From positions 311,798,001 through 311,862,000 of the forward strand of contig OZ024742.1 of assembly GCA_964016885.1 (NCBI GenBank): a stretch of 64,000 nucleotides of DNA. The letters run 5' to 3'. This document shows positions 581 to 61,156 of this stretch, one piece after another (the first letter of the stretch is position 1; the number at the start of each line of letters is the position of its first letter). This DNA is from Eledone cirrhosa (taxonomy: Eukaryota). The position numbers were made by a program, and so were the translations under genes. The notes under the pieces were generated by a model. It was not told where the DNA came from. It saw nothing but the letters and a program-made list of their open reading frames with translations, and did no database searches.

Positions 581-615
581 CTCTCCTGATGAAGGGTTAT
601 GCCCGAAACGTCGCA
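581..615 (+). ncRNA. Degenerate minimal hammerhead motif (PLE-type)
   Basis: CTGATGA(586-592)-a-GGG-ttatg-CCC-GAAAC; the expected UH site reads GCA and stem I is not evident, so probably inactive. Confidence 0.5.
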
Positions 616-729
616 ACCACACCCCCACTCTCAGTAAGCGTGAAACTAATAATATTTGTAACATTTACTCCTGCGTTTGTCTGTTTTTTTGTTTTCTGAT
701 ATTCCGAGATATATATATATATATATATA

Positions 730-913
730 ACAAGGGAAGTGTGGTAATGAACCAGGTGGACCATAACGCACCAGAGTACTCGATACTTAGGATAGTAGAG
801 TGGGTAATAGGAAAATAGTCAGGACCCCGACAGCTGAGCTCCGACTGTTTCGACAGCTAGATCCGAACTCTAGCTGTCGAAATGACCGGAGCTTAGCCGT
901 CGGGGTCCTGACT
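730..913. mobile_element. PLE pseudo-LTR/tail island with fold-back 817-913 and the 3' half of a hammerhead
   Basis: Arms agtcaggaccccgac...ctag / ctag...gtcggggtcctgact, loop 861-869. Minus strand reads GAAA-cag...ctg-TC (GUC site). Same family at about 4015-4127, 15355-15440, 15510-15694, 26805-26925 and 60880-61022. Confidence 0.7.
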
Positions 914-1062
914 CTTTCTCTCTCCCTCTCTCTCTCTCTCTCTCTCTCTCTCTCTCTCTCTCTCTATATATATATATATATATATATATATATATATATA
1001 TATATATATGCACAAACATATAAACACACATACTCTTACATACGTACATACATACATATATA

Positions 1063-1529
1063 CATGACAGCTGCCCCCTCGTTATCGAATATGGCCATTG
1101 CACGATATACCATTATTAATAATTATTAACTAATTCTATCGTGCAATGCCTGTGCGTGAAGATATTTTTTAAAGTGAGGCAAGACTGTGCACTGAGCCAA
1201 TCCCACTCTCTGAGCGACAGTAGCTATAACCCGAAAAGAAGAACATCATCGGTAACTACTGAGCCGCAGGTTTTATATCGGAGTTATCCCAATTTCCTGA
1301 GTTGCCTTCTCCTAGAAGAATGCCCTGACAAAGGCTAGGGGTCCTTCACTACCAGTGGTTTAACCGCGCGATCGGGTGTCCAGCCCGACTATTTCTATGT
1401 CTCCGCGCATATACACACACATGCACCTATGTATATACACATATACATATACATACATATGTATATGTATGTATACATATTTACACACTTTTGGATGGCC
1501 GTTGACTTTTATGAGTTCTTCCGCCCTAC
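1063..1529 (-). mobile_element. RTE-derived non-autonomous element (divergent subfamily), interrupted by a microsatellite
   Basis: Minus strand has the RTE 5'UTR-like motif ctaggagaagg and the 3' end tggccatattcgataacgaggggcagc; similar to 33761-34369. Confidence 0.6.
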
Positions 1530-2017
1530 ACATACATACATACATACATACATACATACATACATACATACATACATACATACATACATACATACATACA
1601 TACATACACATACATACATACATACATACATACATACATACATACATACATACATACACATACATACATACATACATACATACATACATACATACATATA
1701 CATACATACATACATACATGCATACATACATACATATACATACATACATACATACATACATACATACACATACATACATACATACATACATACACATACA
1801 TACATACATACATACATACACATACATACATACATACATACATATACATACATACATACATACATACATACATACATAATACATACATACACATACATAC
1901 ATACATACATACATACATACATACATATACATACATACATACATACATACATACATACATACATACATACATACATACATATACATACATACATACATAC
2001 ATACATACATACATACA
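1530..2017. repeat. (CATA)n microsatellite
   Basis: Direct reading. Confidence 0.95.
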
Positions 2018-2215
2018 TACTGAACTTGGATTTGTGGACAAAAAGCGCAGCTCCCTAATTCATAGTCTACAAATGGCTGCGATAGCTGGCACCTTCAAAA
2101 TTTGCAAAACATTCTTGCGATTCAAGGGATGACAATTTCTTTTCTTTTATAACCTTGCCACCAGGAAGGTGGCCGGTCAAAAAAATATACTCGAAATTAA
2201 GAGAAAGAGAAAACA
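2018..2215 (+). mobile_element. 3' end of an R4/Dong-like (RLE-type) LINE within (CATA)n
   Basis: Translates TELGFVDKKRSSLIHSLQMAAIAGTFKICKTFLRFKG*; 3'UTR shared with 36190-36505. Confidence 0.6.
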
Positions 2216-3870
2216 TACATACATACAAATATACATACATACAAATATACATACATACATACATACACACATACACATACATACATACATACATACATAC
2301 ACATACATACATACATACATACATACATACATATACACATACACATACATACATACATACATACATACATACATACATACATACATACATACATACATAC
2401 ATACATACATACATACATACACATGTGCATATTAATTTCAAGTGCACTGGGAATGTAACCGTCATTGAACATCATAATAGAGTTCTAACGAAAATAATAA
2501 AAAAATAACAGAAAGATCTTGCGATATATAGATATATATATAGATATATATATATATATATATATATATATATAGATAGATAGAGGGAGGGGAATAGAGA
2601 ATTAGTGAGGGGACAGAGGTATAGTTGGAGAGTACAATAAATGGAGAGGGGGAGAAAGAGAGAGAAGGGGCAGAAGAAGAGAGAGAAAAAGAGAGAGAGT
2701 GAGAGAGAGAGAGAGAGAGTGAGAGAGAGAGAGAAAGAAAGATAGGGAGAGAGAGAAAGAGAAAGAGAGAGAGGTGAGAGTTATGAGGTGTGTATGTGTG
2801 TGTGTGTGTGTGTGTGTGTGTGTGTAATGGACAGAAATATAATTGGAGAGAACAATAAATAGAGAGGGGAGGAGAGCGAAAGAGAGAGTGAGAGAAAGAG
2901 AATGAATGAAAGAGAGAGAGAGAGAGAGAGGGAGAGAGAGAGAGAGAAGTGAGAGTTAAGAGATGTAAGTGTGTGTATGTGTGTATGTGTGTATGTGTAT
3001 ATACTGTATATGGTACTTCTACACAGCTTAGCAGCAGAAAGCCTCTTACTGATATTATTAAACACCAGATTCATTTTGCTTCCCAGCTGGAAACTTTTAC
3101 TAAGGACTATAGCATTATAAAATAACGCAGGTAAGTTTACTATTCTACACACATGCGTGTATCATAATATGAAGAAAAAACAACAACACACATTGAGTAG
3201 ATATATATATTTATATATATATATATATATATAAACACATACAAACACAACGATAAATTTATCCAGATGCAAGTAGATTGATATGGCAGTTATATATATT
3301 TCTCTGATAGCTATTTCTTTCTTTGTCAATTTGTAACGTGAATGAACACACACACATACACGAACACACAAATATATATATATTTATTCAGTGTGTATGT
3401 GCATGTATGTATATATATATATATATATGTGCATGTATTATATAAGTATATTTTATAGTTGAGACAGTAAACAAAAAACAAAAAAAAACAACATGGAAGC
3501 GAAGAGGCAGTACAAAATGTTAATATTAGTTTCACGCATGAGAGTGATATATATATATATATATATGGATATATACATACATATGTATATGTATATATAT
3601 ATATATATATATATATATATATATATATATCACTCTATATATATGGATATATATATATGGATATATACATATATATATATGGATATATACATACATATAT
3701 ATATATATATATATATATATACATGTATATATATACACATGTATATATATATATATATATATATATATATATATATATATATATATATATATATATATAT
3801 ATATATATATATATATATATATATACATGTATATATATACACATGTATATCTATATCTCTCTATCTATAT

Positions 3871-58743: not shown

Positions 58744-58798
58744 ACTGCTATATATATTTCAGTGACAGCCATCTTTGGCTGTGACCTCTTCAGGCAGT
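58744..58798 (-). ncRNA. Type I hammerhead ribozyme
   Basis: Minus strand: actgc CTGAAGA ggt-c-acagcc-aaagat-ggctgt-c-act GAAA tatata TA gcagt. 5-bp stem I; palindromic stem III; downstream of the PLE endonuclease ORF. Confidence 0.8.
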
Positions 58799-59262
58799 TT
58801 GAATTAGTATGGTATAGACAAGTACATATGTTGTTTAGGTGTATGATATTGTCAATACTCTGATATGCCCAGTTCCTTGTTGGGTTGTTAATTCACAGGG
58901 GAACTGGAGTCATATGAATTCAAACAAACGAATTTCAGTGTCACAGGTCCCCTTCTCCTCTCATTGGTCAGTTATTAGAACATTCCTCATTCTAAGTGTT
59001 GTTATTGTTGGAGTTAGCTTAAAAATTGATAAAATGGTAGAAGGGACAAGGTGTTAAAGGAACAAAATAACAAAAAAAGTGTCAAACTTCCCATTGTTCA
59101 GTTCTGAGAGCATTCCTCAGTCAGAAGTCTATAGAATTCTTTCTGGGGTGAGGCTCCCTGTAGTGTTTTTGCCTGCTATTGTTCAGTACATTTGACCTCC
59201 ACCATTATTTTGGTACTGTTGTTGTTGTAGTGGTCAGCTTATATCTTGCTGCTGCTAACAAT

Positions 59263-60230
59263 TTAGAAGTATCCAGTTTGTGTTTTTTCTTCATCCCTCC
59301 CGCCACCATCGGTTCTGAGGTTTATCAGGCCGCTTCCACCTCTTAGTATCTCGAGGGTCTCGTTCAGGCATAGTTTGCATATGCAAGATCCCCCTTTATC
59401 GGGTGGTACTTTCCTGATTATGTACCAGGCCAGAGAGTATGGGGTCCTGTCCAGCTTAAGCTTCCAGATCAGGTCGGAGAGAGCTGTGCTTTTCCTTTTG
59501 GCCTCCTTCTTGAATGAATGGCGATGGTTGTACCAGCGGTCCTTAAAGCTCGTTGATGTGGCTCCTATGTAGAGGTGTTCGGAGTTGGGGGTTTTAACCC
59601 TACAACCGTACACTAGGTTCTTCTTGAGACATTCATTACCAAGGGGGCATGATTCGGGGTTTCTGCAGTTGCAGAGGGTGGTCGGCCTCTGCGTGCCTAT
59701 ATTAGGGTTCTCATTATGTGTTACATGTTGGTCTTCCCCCATGCTCGGTGGGGTGTCCTTGGGTCTGTTTGTGTTTCTTGGGTGGGCTCTGGGTCCCCCC
59801 TTCCCTCCTTTCACATGGTTCTGCTGAGTGTTTGTATTGCCATCTTCTGGTTGTGTGTGGTTTTTAAGCCTACTTCTGTTGATGCTAGCTATGTGTTGGG
59901 CCAAATTTCTCGTGGTGGAATACGAAAGCTTCACAGTGTGTCTGTTGAAGATCCTGTGGTATCTGTGGTCCCTCGGGAAGCATTTGTCAAGTGCTCCAAA
60001 GAATAATCGGGCCAAGCTTTTCTTTAGGGCCGCTGAGTAGGGTGGGTTGTACCACGTGATTTGTCGGTGTCTTCTCCTATATGTGTGGGTTGGGGGCTTC
60101 GTGATTTGTTGGAGATTTGTTGGGTTGCTGGTGGTTTCCGCACTGTTGCTTCCCTTTTGGGCTCTATACTTTTTGTTATCTTCGCGGCCCGGATTTGTGG
60201 GGTGGTTGTTGTCCGCCCCGGGAGATCCAT
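59263..60230 (-). pseudogene. PLE linker and GIY-YIG endonuclease, 5'-truncated, antisense within the intron
   Basis: ITWYNPPYS, CFPRDHRYHRIFNRHTVKLSYS, CNCRNPESCPLGNEC, LVY...YIGAT...FKDRWYNH, CKLCLNE. Confidence 0.9.
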
Positions 60231-60509
60231 ATATATATATATATATATATATATAGTATTTTCCGTAGTGTTGTAATATGAATATTACACAGAGTAGATG
60301 GACACCTCACGTAGAGTTTGCTCGACGGTTCCAGTTGTAGTTTCAAAAGTAATCCGGAGAAAATAGAAGGATATTTAAATCCTTCTATATATATATATAT
60401 GTATATATATGTATATATATATATATATATATATATATATATATATATATATATATATATATATATATATAATATATAAGATCAAAAAGATGGTTAAATG
60501 AGTTCCATG

Positions 60510-60578
60510 TATTTTATTATGCGCATTTCAAAAACAAATATCATCATGCAATAACATTTGTGTTTTCATCAGAAAATA
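60510..60578 (-). ncRNA. Type I hammerhead (family of 9967-10037)
   Basis: Minus strand: tatttt CTGATGA [long stem II] GAAA tgcgca TA ataaaata; 2-nt deletion in the stem I 5' strand. Confidence 0.65.
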
Positions 60579-60745
60579 TGAGGACATGATATGAAGGTTA
60601 AAAACACTTGTGGATAGTGCAGTTTTAAATCAACATATGAAAAGTAGTTTTAGATTGATGTGTGATATTGGGGAAATTTTTTTTTAGGGGGGGGGGGGGA
60701 TGAATCTTAACCATCTACTATGTCAGGGTATGACATGCATCATCT

Positions 60746-60812
60746 TATTTTATCTGATGAGGACGTACTGTTTAACTTAACTCAGTACCTCTGAAATATG
60801 TATAATAAAATA
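60746..60812 (+). ncRNA. Type I hammerhead (family of 25690-25752)
   Basis: tattttat CTGATGA gga-c-gtactg-[12 nt]-cagtac-c-tct GAAA tatgta TA ataaaata; perfect 8-bp stem I. Confidence 0.8.
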
Positions 60813-61156
60813 TAATTGATCACAAGAATATCTATTTTGTTAATATTTTGAATTAATATTATATATATATATATATATAAATCAGGATGGATTCCGTTTG
60901 AAGCTGGTTAAGCCATTACTCAACCGAGTACTCGGTACTTTGGGTAGTAGAGTATTGTTATCATATAAAGAGTCAGAGCCCCGACTGCTGAGCTGTTGCC
61001 GTTTCAACAGCTAGTTCCAGACTATATATATATATATATATATATATATATATATATATATATATATATATATATATATATATATATATATATATATATA
61101 TATATATATATATATATATATATATATATATATATATATATATATATATATATATG

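Follow-up and report, generated by a model that had tools for sequence, protein, structure and literature searches.

The hammerhead-bearing islands in the window, a 64,000-nucleotide stretch of Eledone cirrhosa DNA, are probably ends of Hydra-clade Penelope-like elements (PLEs) that fall at two fixed points, each usually about 6 nt before a hairpin that likely binds the reverse transcriptase (RT)-endonuclease and sets where reverse transcription starts. That these islands are mostly 5′-truncated, often inverted 3′ ends of Hydra-clade PLE families lying in (TA)n is close to certain, with the clade placed by protein motifs. The Hydra-PLE identity of the islands, the (TA)n targeting, and the retrozyme nature of one further family (F) are already known biology. 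What is new is that each family has two ends, that short and long ends pair in fold-backs, and that a conserved hairpin stands behind each end. The first-pass annotation overlooked this two-end anatomy and the hairpin. If the reading is true, the two hairpins account for both the PLE tail and the asymmetry of the fold-backs, and they would be a portable signal for turning an RNA into a template for two-ended insertion at (TA)n.

A strict type I descriptor (CUGANGA, stem II, GAAA, stem III, UH, and a stem I of at least 5 bp) found 8 hammerhead sites in the 64-kb window, against a mean of 0.05 to 0.12 (maximum, 2) in 300 dinucleotide shuffles of it, and at least 8 hammerhead families are present. 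The diversity of at least seven families claimed by the first-pass annotation was confirmed, as was an excess over shuffled sequence. Its list of complete copies held in part. Eight of the 12 passed the descriptor (9967, 13278, 13847, 19636, 25690, 32874, 58744, and 60746), that at 25690 solely via an alternative stem III/UH register, but those at 30957 and 32651 lack CUGANGA and have a UUGAGAA core, a U3-A8 variant, with a weak stem I, stem I of that at 8033 contains an A-A mismatch shared by its whole family (G), in which it is fixed, and stem I of that at 60510 is broken. The CUGAAGA core at 32874 is atypical of family D, in which CAGAAGA was found in 52 of 64 copies and CTGAAGA in 3. By family, the core is canonical in A, B, and E, U3-A8 in H and J, and U4A in most D copies, and it is retained in 3 of 45 sampled arms of family J. 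The stems covary among 32 clusters, as judged by eye. Folding gave a complete three-stem active fold in none of 8 monomers. No hammerhead appeared among the best 150 of the 488 Rfam matches in the window, and RF00163 matched 18 of the 74 candidates that were scored across the genome, with no such match inside the window.

The claim that the locus is dense in such cores did not survive comparison with the rest of the genome. In 98 evenly spaced 10-kb stretches (980 kb), we found 80 strict cores, while 8 shuffles gave 0 to 4, and at this rate the probability of 8 or more cores in 64 kb is 0.20. The hammerhead density of the window is that of the genome background, and extrapolation gives about 240,000 strict cores for the whole genome. 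The suggested (TA)n enrichment was evident: (TA)n lies within 200 nt downstream of 70 of the 80 hammerheads in the even sample versus 21% of random positions. The islands in the window likewise adjoin (TA)n and many are fold-backs, as had been described, but they are not all noncoding, since those at 30957/32651 and 58744 are joined to endonuclease-coding open reading frame (ORF) remnants.

Full-length copies have the order hammerhead, tail, 5′ untranslated region (UTR), and ORF in families A (L271), D (L259), J (L261), E (L114), and H (L264, frameshifted), and family B is linked to a PLE ORF in L282; no ORF link was found for families C and G. The frames of L271, L259, L261, and L114 are open over 712 to 894 aa (758 aa for family A) and contain YRDD and YIG, with the RT followed by a C-terminal GIY-YIG. 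Family E gave 144 scored matches at 87 to 100% amino acid identity, several of them within frames of 856 to 896 aa. The four proteins (44 to 52% identical to that of A) have RW[KR], DKT, YRDD, CxCX5C, YIG, CxxC, and CxH in common; the N-terminal motif is RWK in E and RWR in A, D, and J, and all four have DKT in place of DKG, the CxCX5C linker, and CxxC and CxH around a conserved E and N. The RT3-RT4 stretch resembles that of Hydra-2_Amil when compared by eye. A Nematis/Neptune assignment was rejected because the linker is CxCX5C in all four proteins, not CX2-5CxxC with a CCHH endonuclease motif. Independent noncoding retrozymes were also rejected for A, B, D, E, H, and J, each of which runs into a PLE ORF. 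Repeat units are 3.1 to 3.3 kb in D, J, and H and longer in E, compared with generally less than 3 kb in the published Hydra clade.

Of the eight sites listed, five (A, B, D, E, and H) are ends of autonomous PLEs of the Hydra clade, and so are the "halves" (J). The first-pass reading of a radiation of TA-targeted, PLE-derived or PLE-mobilized ribozyme elements is upheld by the RT-endonuclease ORFs of these six families and by the (TA)n proximity of the hammerheads. The term "ribozyme elements" fits less well: the PLE origin stands, but most islands are truncated inverted PLE ends, and only family F behaves as a retrozyme. Exact patterns counted 8,070 (A, tail), 1,009 (H), 54,367 (J, the most abundant), 22,816 (D), 30,198 (F), and 9,798 (C) matches, with 0 for reversed controls, and eleven reference sequences (ten families: nine PLE-type and retrozyme F) together make up about 4% of the DNA sampled at even spacing. 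Some family E copies terminate in (CT)n.

A half hammerhead (core, stem II, and GAAA, without a closing stem I) lies on the plus strand at 581 to 625. A family J-type fold-back within (TA)n at 709 to 918 (long arm on the minus strand, hairpin 1 at 778 to 801) lost its core at the inversion, another J fold-back at 15512 to 15691 (long arm minus, hairpin 1 at 15550 to 15573) has also lost the core, and a J fold-back fragment occupies 3976 to 4146 (short arm minus, tail piece plus). Family A-like fold-back pieces at 4609 to 4833 include a minus-strand long arm with hairpin 1 at 4674 to 4692. The family A fold-back at 13262 to 13980 has a minus-strand short arm (core at 13322) with about 500 nt of 3′ UTR and a plus-strand long arm (core at 13853) with hairpin 1 at 13919 to 13937 and the tail. 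Two tails with hairpin 1 lie at 4918 to 5050 (plus; hairpin at 4956 to 5005, 45 nt before (TA)n) and at 5655 to 5794 (minus; hairpin at 5714 to 5747). Family D is represented by fold-back pieces with a CAGAAGA core (5914 to 6158), a fold-back with this core in both its long (minus) and short (plus) arms (10361 to 10900), a minus-strand tail fragment (30037 to 30119), and a fold-back at 32813 to 33038 whose plus-strand long arm has the atypical CUGAAGA core at 32879. The family G short arm at 7969 to 8181 (minus; core at 8108) has a long stem II and the family-fixed stem I mismatch; other family G copies bear hairpin 1.

The family B fold-back at 9922 to 10247 combines a minus-strand short arm with a complete hammerhead (core at 10029, H17 at 9975) and a plus-strand long arm with hairpin 1 at 10162 to 10186, and the hammerhead of the family C fold-back at 25390 to 25801 (318 bp, 96% self-complementary) lies at 25702 and is mismatched in stem I. 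Family H is present as a 5′-truncated Hydra PLE on the minus strand at 30736 to 32748, with an endonuclease-coding frame at 31358 to 32275, a U3-A8 hammerhead at about 30957 to 31000, hairpin 1 at 30823 to 30894, a tail, and an inverted short arm on the plus strand at 32642 to 32748. A 5′-truncated family E PLE with an internal deletion (58595 to 60230, minus) retains a linker and endonuclease frame, a hammerhead core at 58793, hairpin 1 at about 58650 to 58688, and a tail. At 60464 to 61022, a nested cluster consists of a family B short arm (minus), a family C short arm (plus; core at 60754), and a family J arm (minus).

Each family has one short and one long 3′ end, 66 to about 163 nt apart across families, and the end clusters link short to long. 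Among 40 copies with an inverted partner, a long arm was paired with a short arm in 37, a short arm with a shortened long arm in 2, and a short arm with a read-through neighbor in 1; like was never paired with like.

The insertion ends usually lie just 5′ of a bulged hairpin with the consensus RCUC-Y..R-UH-GAGY. Counting ends within −25 to +6 nt of the hairpin, a spacing of 6 nt agrees with 178 of 266 ends and, when these are grouped into family-ends, with 14 of 16. In five families, it fits 145 of 217 ends and, alone among the offsets, lies within the modal intervals of 9 of the 10 sets, and in four further families it fits 33 of 49. Offsets of 3 to 5 nt are also compatible with many copies (108 to 127 of 217), since TA microhomology blurs the junctions; sets H1 and H2 put the spacing at 6 or more, and six other sets put it at 6 or less. 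Exceptions are the long end of family A (A2), with 38 of 45 ends lying 7 to 9 nt ahead of a hairpin that lacks the motif, and the short end of family B (B1), with 6 of 11 at 9 nt; minor ends occur at 12 to 17 nt (A1) and 7 to 10 nt (D1). In D, E, H, and J, hairpin 2 sits 3′ of the long end; it lies beyond the insertion and is seen only in full-length copies. Its pattern gave 3,326 matches versus 18 in the control, and 22 of the first 30 directly precede a PLE ORF start, including those of families B and C0, which had been left out of pattern building. The distance from hairpin 2 to the ATG is about 20 to 90 nt.

In 18 clusters for which pairing was not required, the outer pair was A-U in 7, G-C in 8, and other in 3, and the inner pair was U-A in 9, C-G in 8, and other in 1. 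All four pair combinations are present, and Fisher tests of the 2 × 2 parts gave P values of 0.0014 (outer) and 4e-5 (inner), which overstate the covariation because the clusters are kin. The loops measure 2 to about 55 nt, and G-U occurs in several of the inner stems, which argues for single-stranded RNA. Folding alone recovered the outer stem in 6 of 6 hairpins and the inner stem in 3, with z < −2 in 2. A strict hairpin at ≤110 nt accompanied 12 of 51 long-armed hammerheads in the even sample and 0 of 29 short arms (background, 0.5%), so many families have no hairpin or have variants of it. The literature that we searched contained no description of this hairpin.

Among seven metagenome loci at 35 to 40% amino acid identity, four show a hammerhead and the hairpin, and the remaining three hold little or no flank. 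Read by eye, L274 and L275 have two hairpins each, and ends lie 3 to 6 nt (L273) and 2 to 6 nt (L275) before a hairpin. Inspection by eye also found the hairpin in the published coral and sea-cucumber consensi Hydra-1_Ajap (two, before the ATG), Hydra-2_Ajap, and Hydra-2_Amil; Hydra-1_Obim and Hydra-1_Crog have a degenerate motif, and that of Hydra-1_Amil has no clear form.

The Poseidon element of Anolis carolinensis, PAc, has two RT start sites that define its tail; both target strands are cut and extended, a dimer is predicted, the hammerhead is dispensable in vitro, and the template RNA must include sequence far to the 3′ side of those sites (Frangieh et al. 2024; PMC11167929). Its two-start TPRT is matched here by two insertion ends per family, one per arm, suggesting that the Hydra ends may be RT initiation sites of a protein dimer (PMC11167929). 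PAc differs in belonging to another clade and in starting in an AC-rich stem-loop, and the available text reports no repeated conserved hairpin or fixed offset (PMC11167929). In the mechanism that we propose, a protein dimer would nick the two strands of a (TA)n tract, as was shown for anole Poseidon in vitro (PMC11167929), while its subunits occupy hairpins 1 and 2, one on each. Each subunit would use a target strand as primer and begin its cDNA about 6 nt 5′ of the hairpin that it occupies, aided by 1 to 5 nt of TA/UA pairing, and both cDNAs would stop early and join head-to-head, which would explain why the tail (hairpin 1 and linker) is on just one fold-back arm. Hairpin 2 would be left uncopied at the 3′ end of the insertion, and the hammerhead just upstream would be carried along, probably weak or dimer- or protein-dependent and dispensable for insertion. 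The hepatitis B epsilon stem-loop and the template-boundary elements of telomerase are RT-bound RNA hairpins that fix where copying begins or ends; the analogy is functional only, as here there would be two hairpins per RNA and priming on genomic DNA. We predict with reasonable confidence that the hairpin docks the RT-endonuclease and sets the start of reverse transcription. The fuller proposal, that two undescribed, phylum-spanning hairpins per RNA serve one subunit each of a dimeric, telomerase-like RT-endonuclease as rulers starting cDNA 6 nt upstream, we regard as evenly balanced.

The fixed 6-nt offset is also compatible with hairpins that act on DNA, the GIY-YIG endonuclease recognizing its motif on cDNA or on the donor DNA and cutting at a fixed distance to leave the ends as resolution cuts, and GIY-YIG enzymes can cut away from their binding site. 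The available text of Craig et al. 2021 ascribes the tail to endonuclease-mediated resolution (PMC8557442), and the D. virilis endonuclease required the tail for recognition, as cited in the available text of PMC11167929. We nevertheless consider this unlikely, as hairpin halves 2 to about 55 nt apart with G-U pairs are unlike a duplex DNA site, and the tail ends of PAc coincide with RT starts in vitro (PMC11167929). Somewhat less likely again, the hairpins could be protein-binding or packaging/translation signals of the 5′ UTR, with UA-rich patches pairing with the (TA)n primer to set the ends and the spacing a by-product. The position of hairpin 2 before the ATG would suit this, as would the 1 to 5 nt of TA microhomology at most junctions, the shift of minor ends to nearby TA-rich patches, and the departure of A2 and B1 from the 6-nt rule. 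However, the tails are AU-rich throughout, yet the ends gather at two points, each by a hairpin, and the bounds of H1 and H2 and of the six other sets meet at 6 nt.

Very improbable is that the islands are independent hammerhead retrozymes that multiply through circular RNA made by the ribozyme and use PLEs just as helpers, given that six families continue into their own RT-endonuclease ORF and that the J and D cores are mostly lost or U4A. This is true in outline for family F, which, judged by its sequence, is a separate ORF-less tandem retrozyme with predicted self-cleavage. Its noncoding units of 420 to 500 bp have a type I hammerhead each, 44 of the first 100 copies are in direct 400- to 560-bp tandems, and L268 has 9 tandem units without an ORF of at least 150 aa. 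Part of a unit lies at 19448 to 19682 (minus; complete hammerhead with core at 19672, no ORF, and no tail hairpin), and two inverted unit fragments lie at 45332 to 45661. F alone resembles the animal non-LTR retrozymes, which share the noncoding tandem units with a type I hammerhead each and the PLE-like inversions (PMC7229834; bioRxiv 10.64898/2026.07.22.740005), and it is probably mobilized by a PLE using other signals.

Hydra-clade elements that combine a hammerhead with a (TA)n target, an inverted copy, and a tail are already published (PMC8557442, PMC4209133). Cervera and de la Peña 2014 (PMC4209133) found minimal PLE hammerheads in many consensus families per genome, with a palindromic helix III, a U3-A8 variant, opposite-strand pairs 100 to 700 bp apart, and mostly solo copies from truncated PLEs, all as here; the tail hairpin is not described there, and their counts are about 2,000 to 9,000 per genome versus about 240,000 estimated here with a different descriptor. 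The Hydra clade in the available text of Craig et al. 2021 (PMC8557442), which includes a family of Octopus bimaculoides (Hydra-1_Obim), is alike in its C-terminal GIY-YIG, its RWK, DKT, CxCX5C, CxxC, and CxH motifs, the type I hammerhead in the pLTR, the (TA)n target, the inverted 5′-truncated copy, and the tail at one end. Outside Repbase, that text covers few families, in contrast to the mass radiation seen here, and it gives no hairpins. Tails are 66 to 163 nt long here versus 30 to 40 nt there, and the core is variable among the families here, with U3-A8 in H and J and U4A in most D copies.

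A structural scan of the window for type I hammerheads returned 8 sites, against means of 0.05 to 0.12 and never more than 2 in 300 dinucleotide shuffles, confirming that the hammerheads listed in the first-pass annotation occur here above chance. The scan recovered 8 of the 12 copies it had listed, and the other four deviate. At 30957 and 32651 the core reads UUGAGAA, a U3-A8 variant known from Schistosoma hammerheads (Cervera and de la Pena, PMC4209133), the copy at 8033 has a stem I mismatch common to its family, and stem I is broken in the copy at 60510. An alternative reading of the core variant as CUUGAGA had 0 matches in 400 kb and was rejected in favor of the U3-A8 reading, whose pattern gave 44 matches versus 9 to 22 in shuffles, so that only part of them are real. 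An Rfam scan of the window was dominated by microsatellite-like miRNA models. The islands do adjoin (TA)n, often as inverted pairs. Their description as non-coding, however, holds only in part, since two continue into endonuclease-coding remnants (31358-32275 and 59263-60228, both minus strand) that are 33% identical to each other.

To place the window in its 3.0-Gb genome, we used 98 evenly spaced 10-kb stretches (the even sample). They contained 80 strict cores, which fall into 32 clusters by sequence, compared with 0 to 4 cores in 8 shuffles; this extrapolates to about 240,000 cores genome-wide (bootstrap 171,000-309,000). A (TA)n run lay at most 200 nt downstream of 70 of the 80 cores versus 21% of random positions, and 21 belonged to head-to-head pairs less than 1 kb apart. 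At this density, the probability of at least 8 cores in 64 kb is 0.20; the idea that the locus is unusually dense was thus not borne out, and the window is not special in this respect. Exact patterns occurred at 8,070, 1,009, and 54,367 places for island families A, H, and J, and at 22,816, 30,198, and 9,798 places for D, F, and C, with 0 for every reversed control. The islands in themselves are ordinary transposon debris.

Outside the window, full-length copies show the order hammerhead, tail, short 5′ UTR, and RT-endonuclease ORF. Such copies were found for families E (locus L114, with an 894-aa frame), A (L271), D (L259), J (L261), H (L264, frameshifted), and B (L282); the frames in L259 and L261 are open. 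Four aligned proteins of these Penelope-like elements (PLEs) are 44 to 52% identical to that of family A, and all carry RW[KR], DKT, YRDD, CxCX5C, YIG, CxxC, and CxH. Craig et al. 2021 (PMC8557442) define the Hydra clade by these features and also describe (TA)n targeting, canonical hammerheads, and an Octopus bimaculoides family. Nematis, considered as another clade for these proteins, was ruled out because the motifs are those of Hydra. Judged by these motifs, the elements appear to be new members of the Hydra clade, plus one retrozyme. No match to the window remnants or the four full-length proteins was found in Pfam, a PDB sequence search gave nothing, and the viral contigs searched contained no relative. 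Four contig sequencing runs compared with the family J 5′ end yielded three short pieces, all from one run.

The retrozyme is family F, of whose first 100 copies 44 lie in direct tandems of 400-560 bp and 26 in head-to-head pairs, and which showed no ORF in a 9-unit array; F qualifies as a non-LTR retrozyme as that term is used in the available text of PMC7229834 and preprint 10.64898/2026.07.22.740005. The proposal of a radiation of TA-targeted ribozyme elements, either derived from PLEs or mobilized by them, is supported; A, B, D, E, H, and J run into RT-endonuclease ORFs, and F is probably mobilized by a PLE. That all islands are independent retrozymes is very improbable, being true for F only. 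Families C and G share the anatomy of the PLE families, yet among 25 C and 20 G loci none could be linked to an ORF. The phenomenon is known in kind, since Hydra-clade PLEs and retrozymes have been published and PMC4209133 already traces solo hammerheads, and those on opposite strands, to truncated PLEs.

Several coding features were noted alongside. An RT fragment at 51495-51908 (minus strand) has a motif that, by eye, resembles the Neptune rows of Craig figure S1, and probably shows that the genome contains a second clade of PLEs. The family E protein has a long low-complexity insert separating the RT from the linker, and open frames of 349-358 aa in many near-identical copies of its ORF suggest a common truncation or break point. 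In a 1,240-aa open frame at L120:1938-5660, the C-terminal half of family E is fused to a different non-LTR RT, either as an in-frame nested insertion or as a chimera.

When sequences adjoining (TA)n were clustered, the hairpin-bearing families showed linked short and long 3′ ends, separated by 66 to about 163 nt. Their pairing was followed in the first 20 to 30 pattern-selected loci each of A, D, J, and H, after removal of duplicates and of loci without the main match; the A loci had been selected for the long end. Forty of the resulting 78 copies had an inverted partner, and these pairs joined a long to a short arm in 37 cases, a short to a shortened long arm in 2, and a short arm to a read-through neighbor in 1; like was never paired with like. 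Two RT start sites have been demonstrated in vitro for PAc, the Poseidon element of Anolis carolinensis (PMC11167929), and figure 2 of Craig et al. 2021 (PMC8557442) shows a tail at one side only. By analogy, the long-short pairing would be the genomic signature of PAc-type two RT starts together with the one-sided tail.

In family A, many arms among loci L071-L100 start within about 10 nt of the hammerhead 5′ stem I strand, an inversion-joint hot spot. An apparent fixed base change with a "strong-stop" 7-8 nt before the core was dropped as an artefact of choosing top matches, the normal upstream sequence being common among the unbiased first 30 copies. Four tandem A arms (L012-L014 and L018, C9:42.92 Mb) repeat with a period of about 200 bp that includes the target flanks, and look like a local duplication, not a retrozyme array. 

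At the start of the tail, many unrelated families have a bulged hairpin of 16-30 nt, RCUC-Y...R-UH-GAGY, after which RC usually comes; the hairpin is present twice. Seven metagenome loci code for relatives (35 to 40% identity). Read by eye, all four with enough flank have a hammerhead and a hairpin, two of them (L274 and L275) have two hairpins, and copies end 3-6 nt (L273) or 2-6 nt (L275) before a hairpin. These two-hairpin loci led us to expect another hairpin past the long end, and one was indeed present there in full-length copies of D, E, H, and J; full-length A has a plain hairpin there, without the motif. The corresponding pattern occurred at 3,326 places versus 18 for its control, and 22 of its first 30 loci lead directly into a PLE ORF start, including those of families B and C0, which had been left out of pattern building. 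No ORF matched at the other 8, among them two truncated J 5′ ends and three loci preceded by a recognizable first hairpin. In the even sample, the strict motif lay near 12 of 51 long-armed versus 0 of 29 short-armed hammerheads (background 0.5%). Isolated hairpins are only modestly stable. Two-ended families without the motif also exist: clusters 10/13, 17/15, 20/36, 26/38, and 47/24 abut TA with linked ends 34-66 nt apart, and are candidates for PLE clades using different signals.

Both ends lie at a near-fixed distance from a hairpin. Counting junctions from -25 to +6 nt of a hairpin, each recorded as an interval because of TA microhomology, an offset of 6 nt fits 145 of 217 copies (5 nt, 127; 7 nt, 79), and 6 is the only value contained in the modal interval of 9 of 10 family-ends. 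It also fits 33 of 49 ends in four further families, giving 178 of 266 ends and 14 of 16 family-ends overall (one with n = 1); the computed fit for the family C short end is 8 of 10. The exceptions are the long end of A (7-9 nt) and the short end of B (9 nt).

For covariation, sites were anchored on invariant letters only, with no demand for base pairing. The 207 sites formed 26 clusters, of which 18 were kept after removing 8 singletons without a hammerhead. The outer pair was A-U in 7, G-C in 8, and other in 3 (Fisher P = 0.0014, 2x2 part), and the inner pair U-A in 9, C-G in 8, and other in 1 (P = 4e-5, 2x2 part), values that are too strong because the clusters are related. The six Hydra consensi of Craig et al., from animals that include coral and sea cucumber, were read by eye: two perfect hairpins stand 5′ of the ATG in Hydra-1_Ajap, and one each 3′ of the hammerhead in Hydra-2_Ajap and Hydra-2_Amil; the motif is degenerate in Hydra-1_Obim and Hydra-1_Crog and unclear in Hydra-1_Amil.

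Element identity, target, the two ends, their pairing, and the hairpins with their spacing are shown by the analysis, and are probably explained as follows. A dimeric RT-endonuclease would nick a (TA)n run on both strands, one hairpin would dock each subunit, and cDNA would start about 6 nt upstream of the hairpin, assisted by short TA/UA pairing; both cDNAs would stop early and then join head-to-head. With a start upstream of the docked hairpin, RNA 3′ of the distal start would be needed yet not copied. PAc requires ORF RNA to +172 and starts near +111-118 (PMC11167929), a need for RNA past its starts that agrees with the mechanism proposed here for Hydra elements. The spacing could also arise from endonuclease cuts at a measured distance from the motif, which we regard as unlikely. 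Given the microhomology at the junctions, the ends might instead be set by UA pairing next to an unrelated signal, a reading we consider somewhat less probable still.

The hammerhead seems secondary, as indicated by core losses and variants, monomer folds, and PAc mutants. Cores are canonical in A, B, and E, and of the U3-A8 type in H and J. Of 45 family J arms sampled, 3 keep the core, and 52 of 64 family D copies (e.g., window 10821 and 10502, and L259) have the core CAGAAGA (U4 to A); D is highly abundant and has open ORFs. None of 8 predicted monomer folds showed the complete three-stem form, and PAc hammerhead mutants insert normally in vitro (PMC11167929). With about 240,000 estimated cores and very abundant core-variant or core-less families, this genome offers a natural test of any role of PLE hammerheads in mobility.

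The twin hairpin, set at an almost constant distance from both ends of an insertion, seems not to have been described before. The literature searched, which excluded subscription papers and Repbase notes, contained no description of the hairpin pair and no hammerhead census of such a genome. The word "hairpin" is absent from the available text of PMC11167929 and PMC8557442, and the Octopus vulgaris repeat annotation, in its accessible portion, counts Penelope-like families without "hammerhead" or "ribozyme" (PMC13282606). The sole in vitro study, on PAc, found two internal starts and placed the binding region only roughly (PMC11167929). A hairpin at a near-fixed distance from each end, conserved both here and in coral and sea-cucumber elements, turns PLE template and start-site choice into a move-the-hairpin experiment, and marks, at the DNA level, Hydra elements as well as the non-autonomous elements that travel with them. 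PLEs are the nearest relatives of telomerase RT.

The window also holds other features. Two probable host-gene exons lie at 56264-56752 and 61572-61997 (plus strand), of which the latter weakly resembles pore-forming proteins of the ETX/MTX2 type, below the threshold (PF03318, E = 0.0094); copies of families E, B, C, and J between them probably sit in an intron. A very abundant short interspersed repeat, probably a SINE, is present in more than 20 pieces that are 80 to 96% alike and unrelated to the hammerhead families (6155-6283, 12287-12750, 17044-17495, 18492-19306, 27472-29194, 39540-40213, and others). A tRNA-Ala at 63910-63982 (minus strand) has the anticodon GGC, which is unusual in eukaryotes, and is possibly a pseudogene or SINE head. 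Three 500-700 bp copies of another element (33701-34413, 45969-46468, and 46427-47137) are 93 to 98% alike, two being inverted relative to the first, and two LINE-like 3′ ends (5103-5341 and 61087-61324), 84% alike, lie beside (TA)n.
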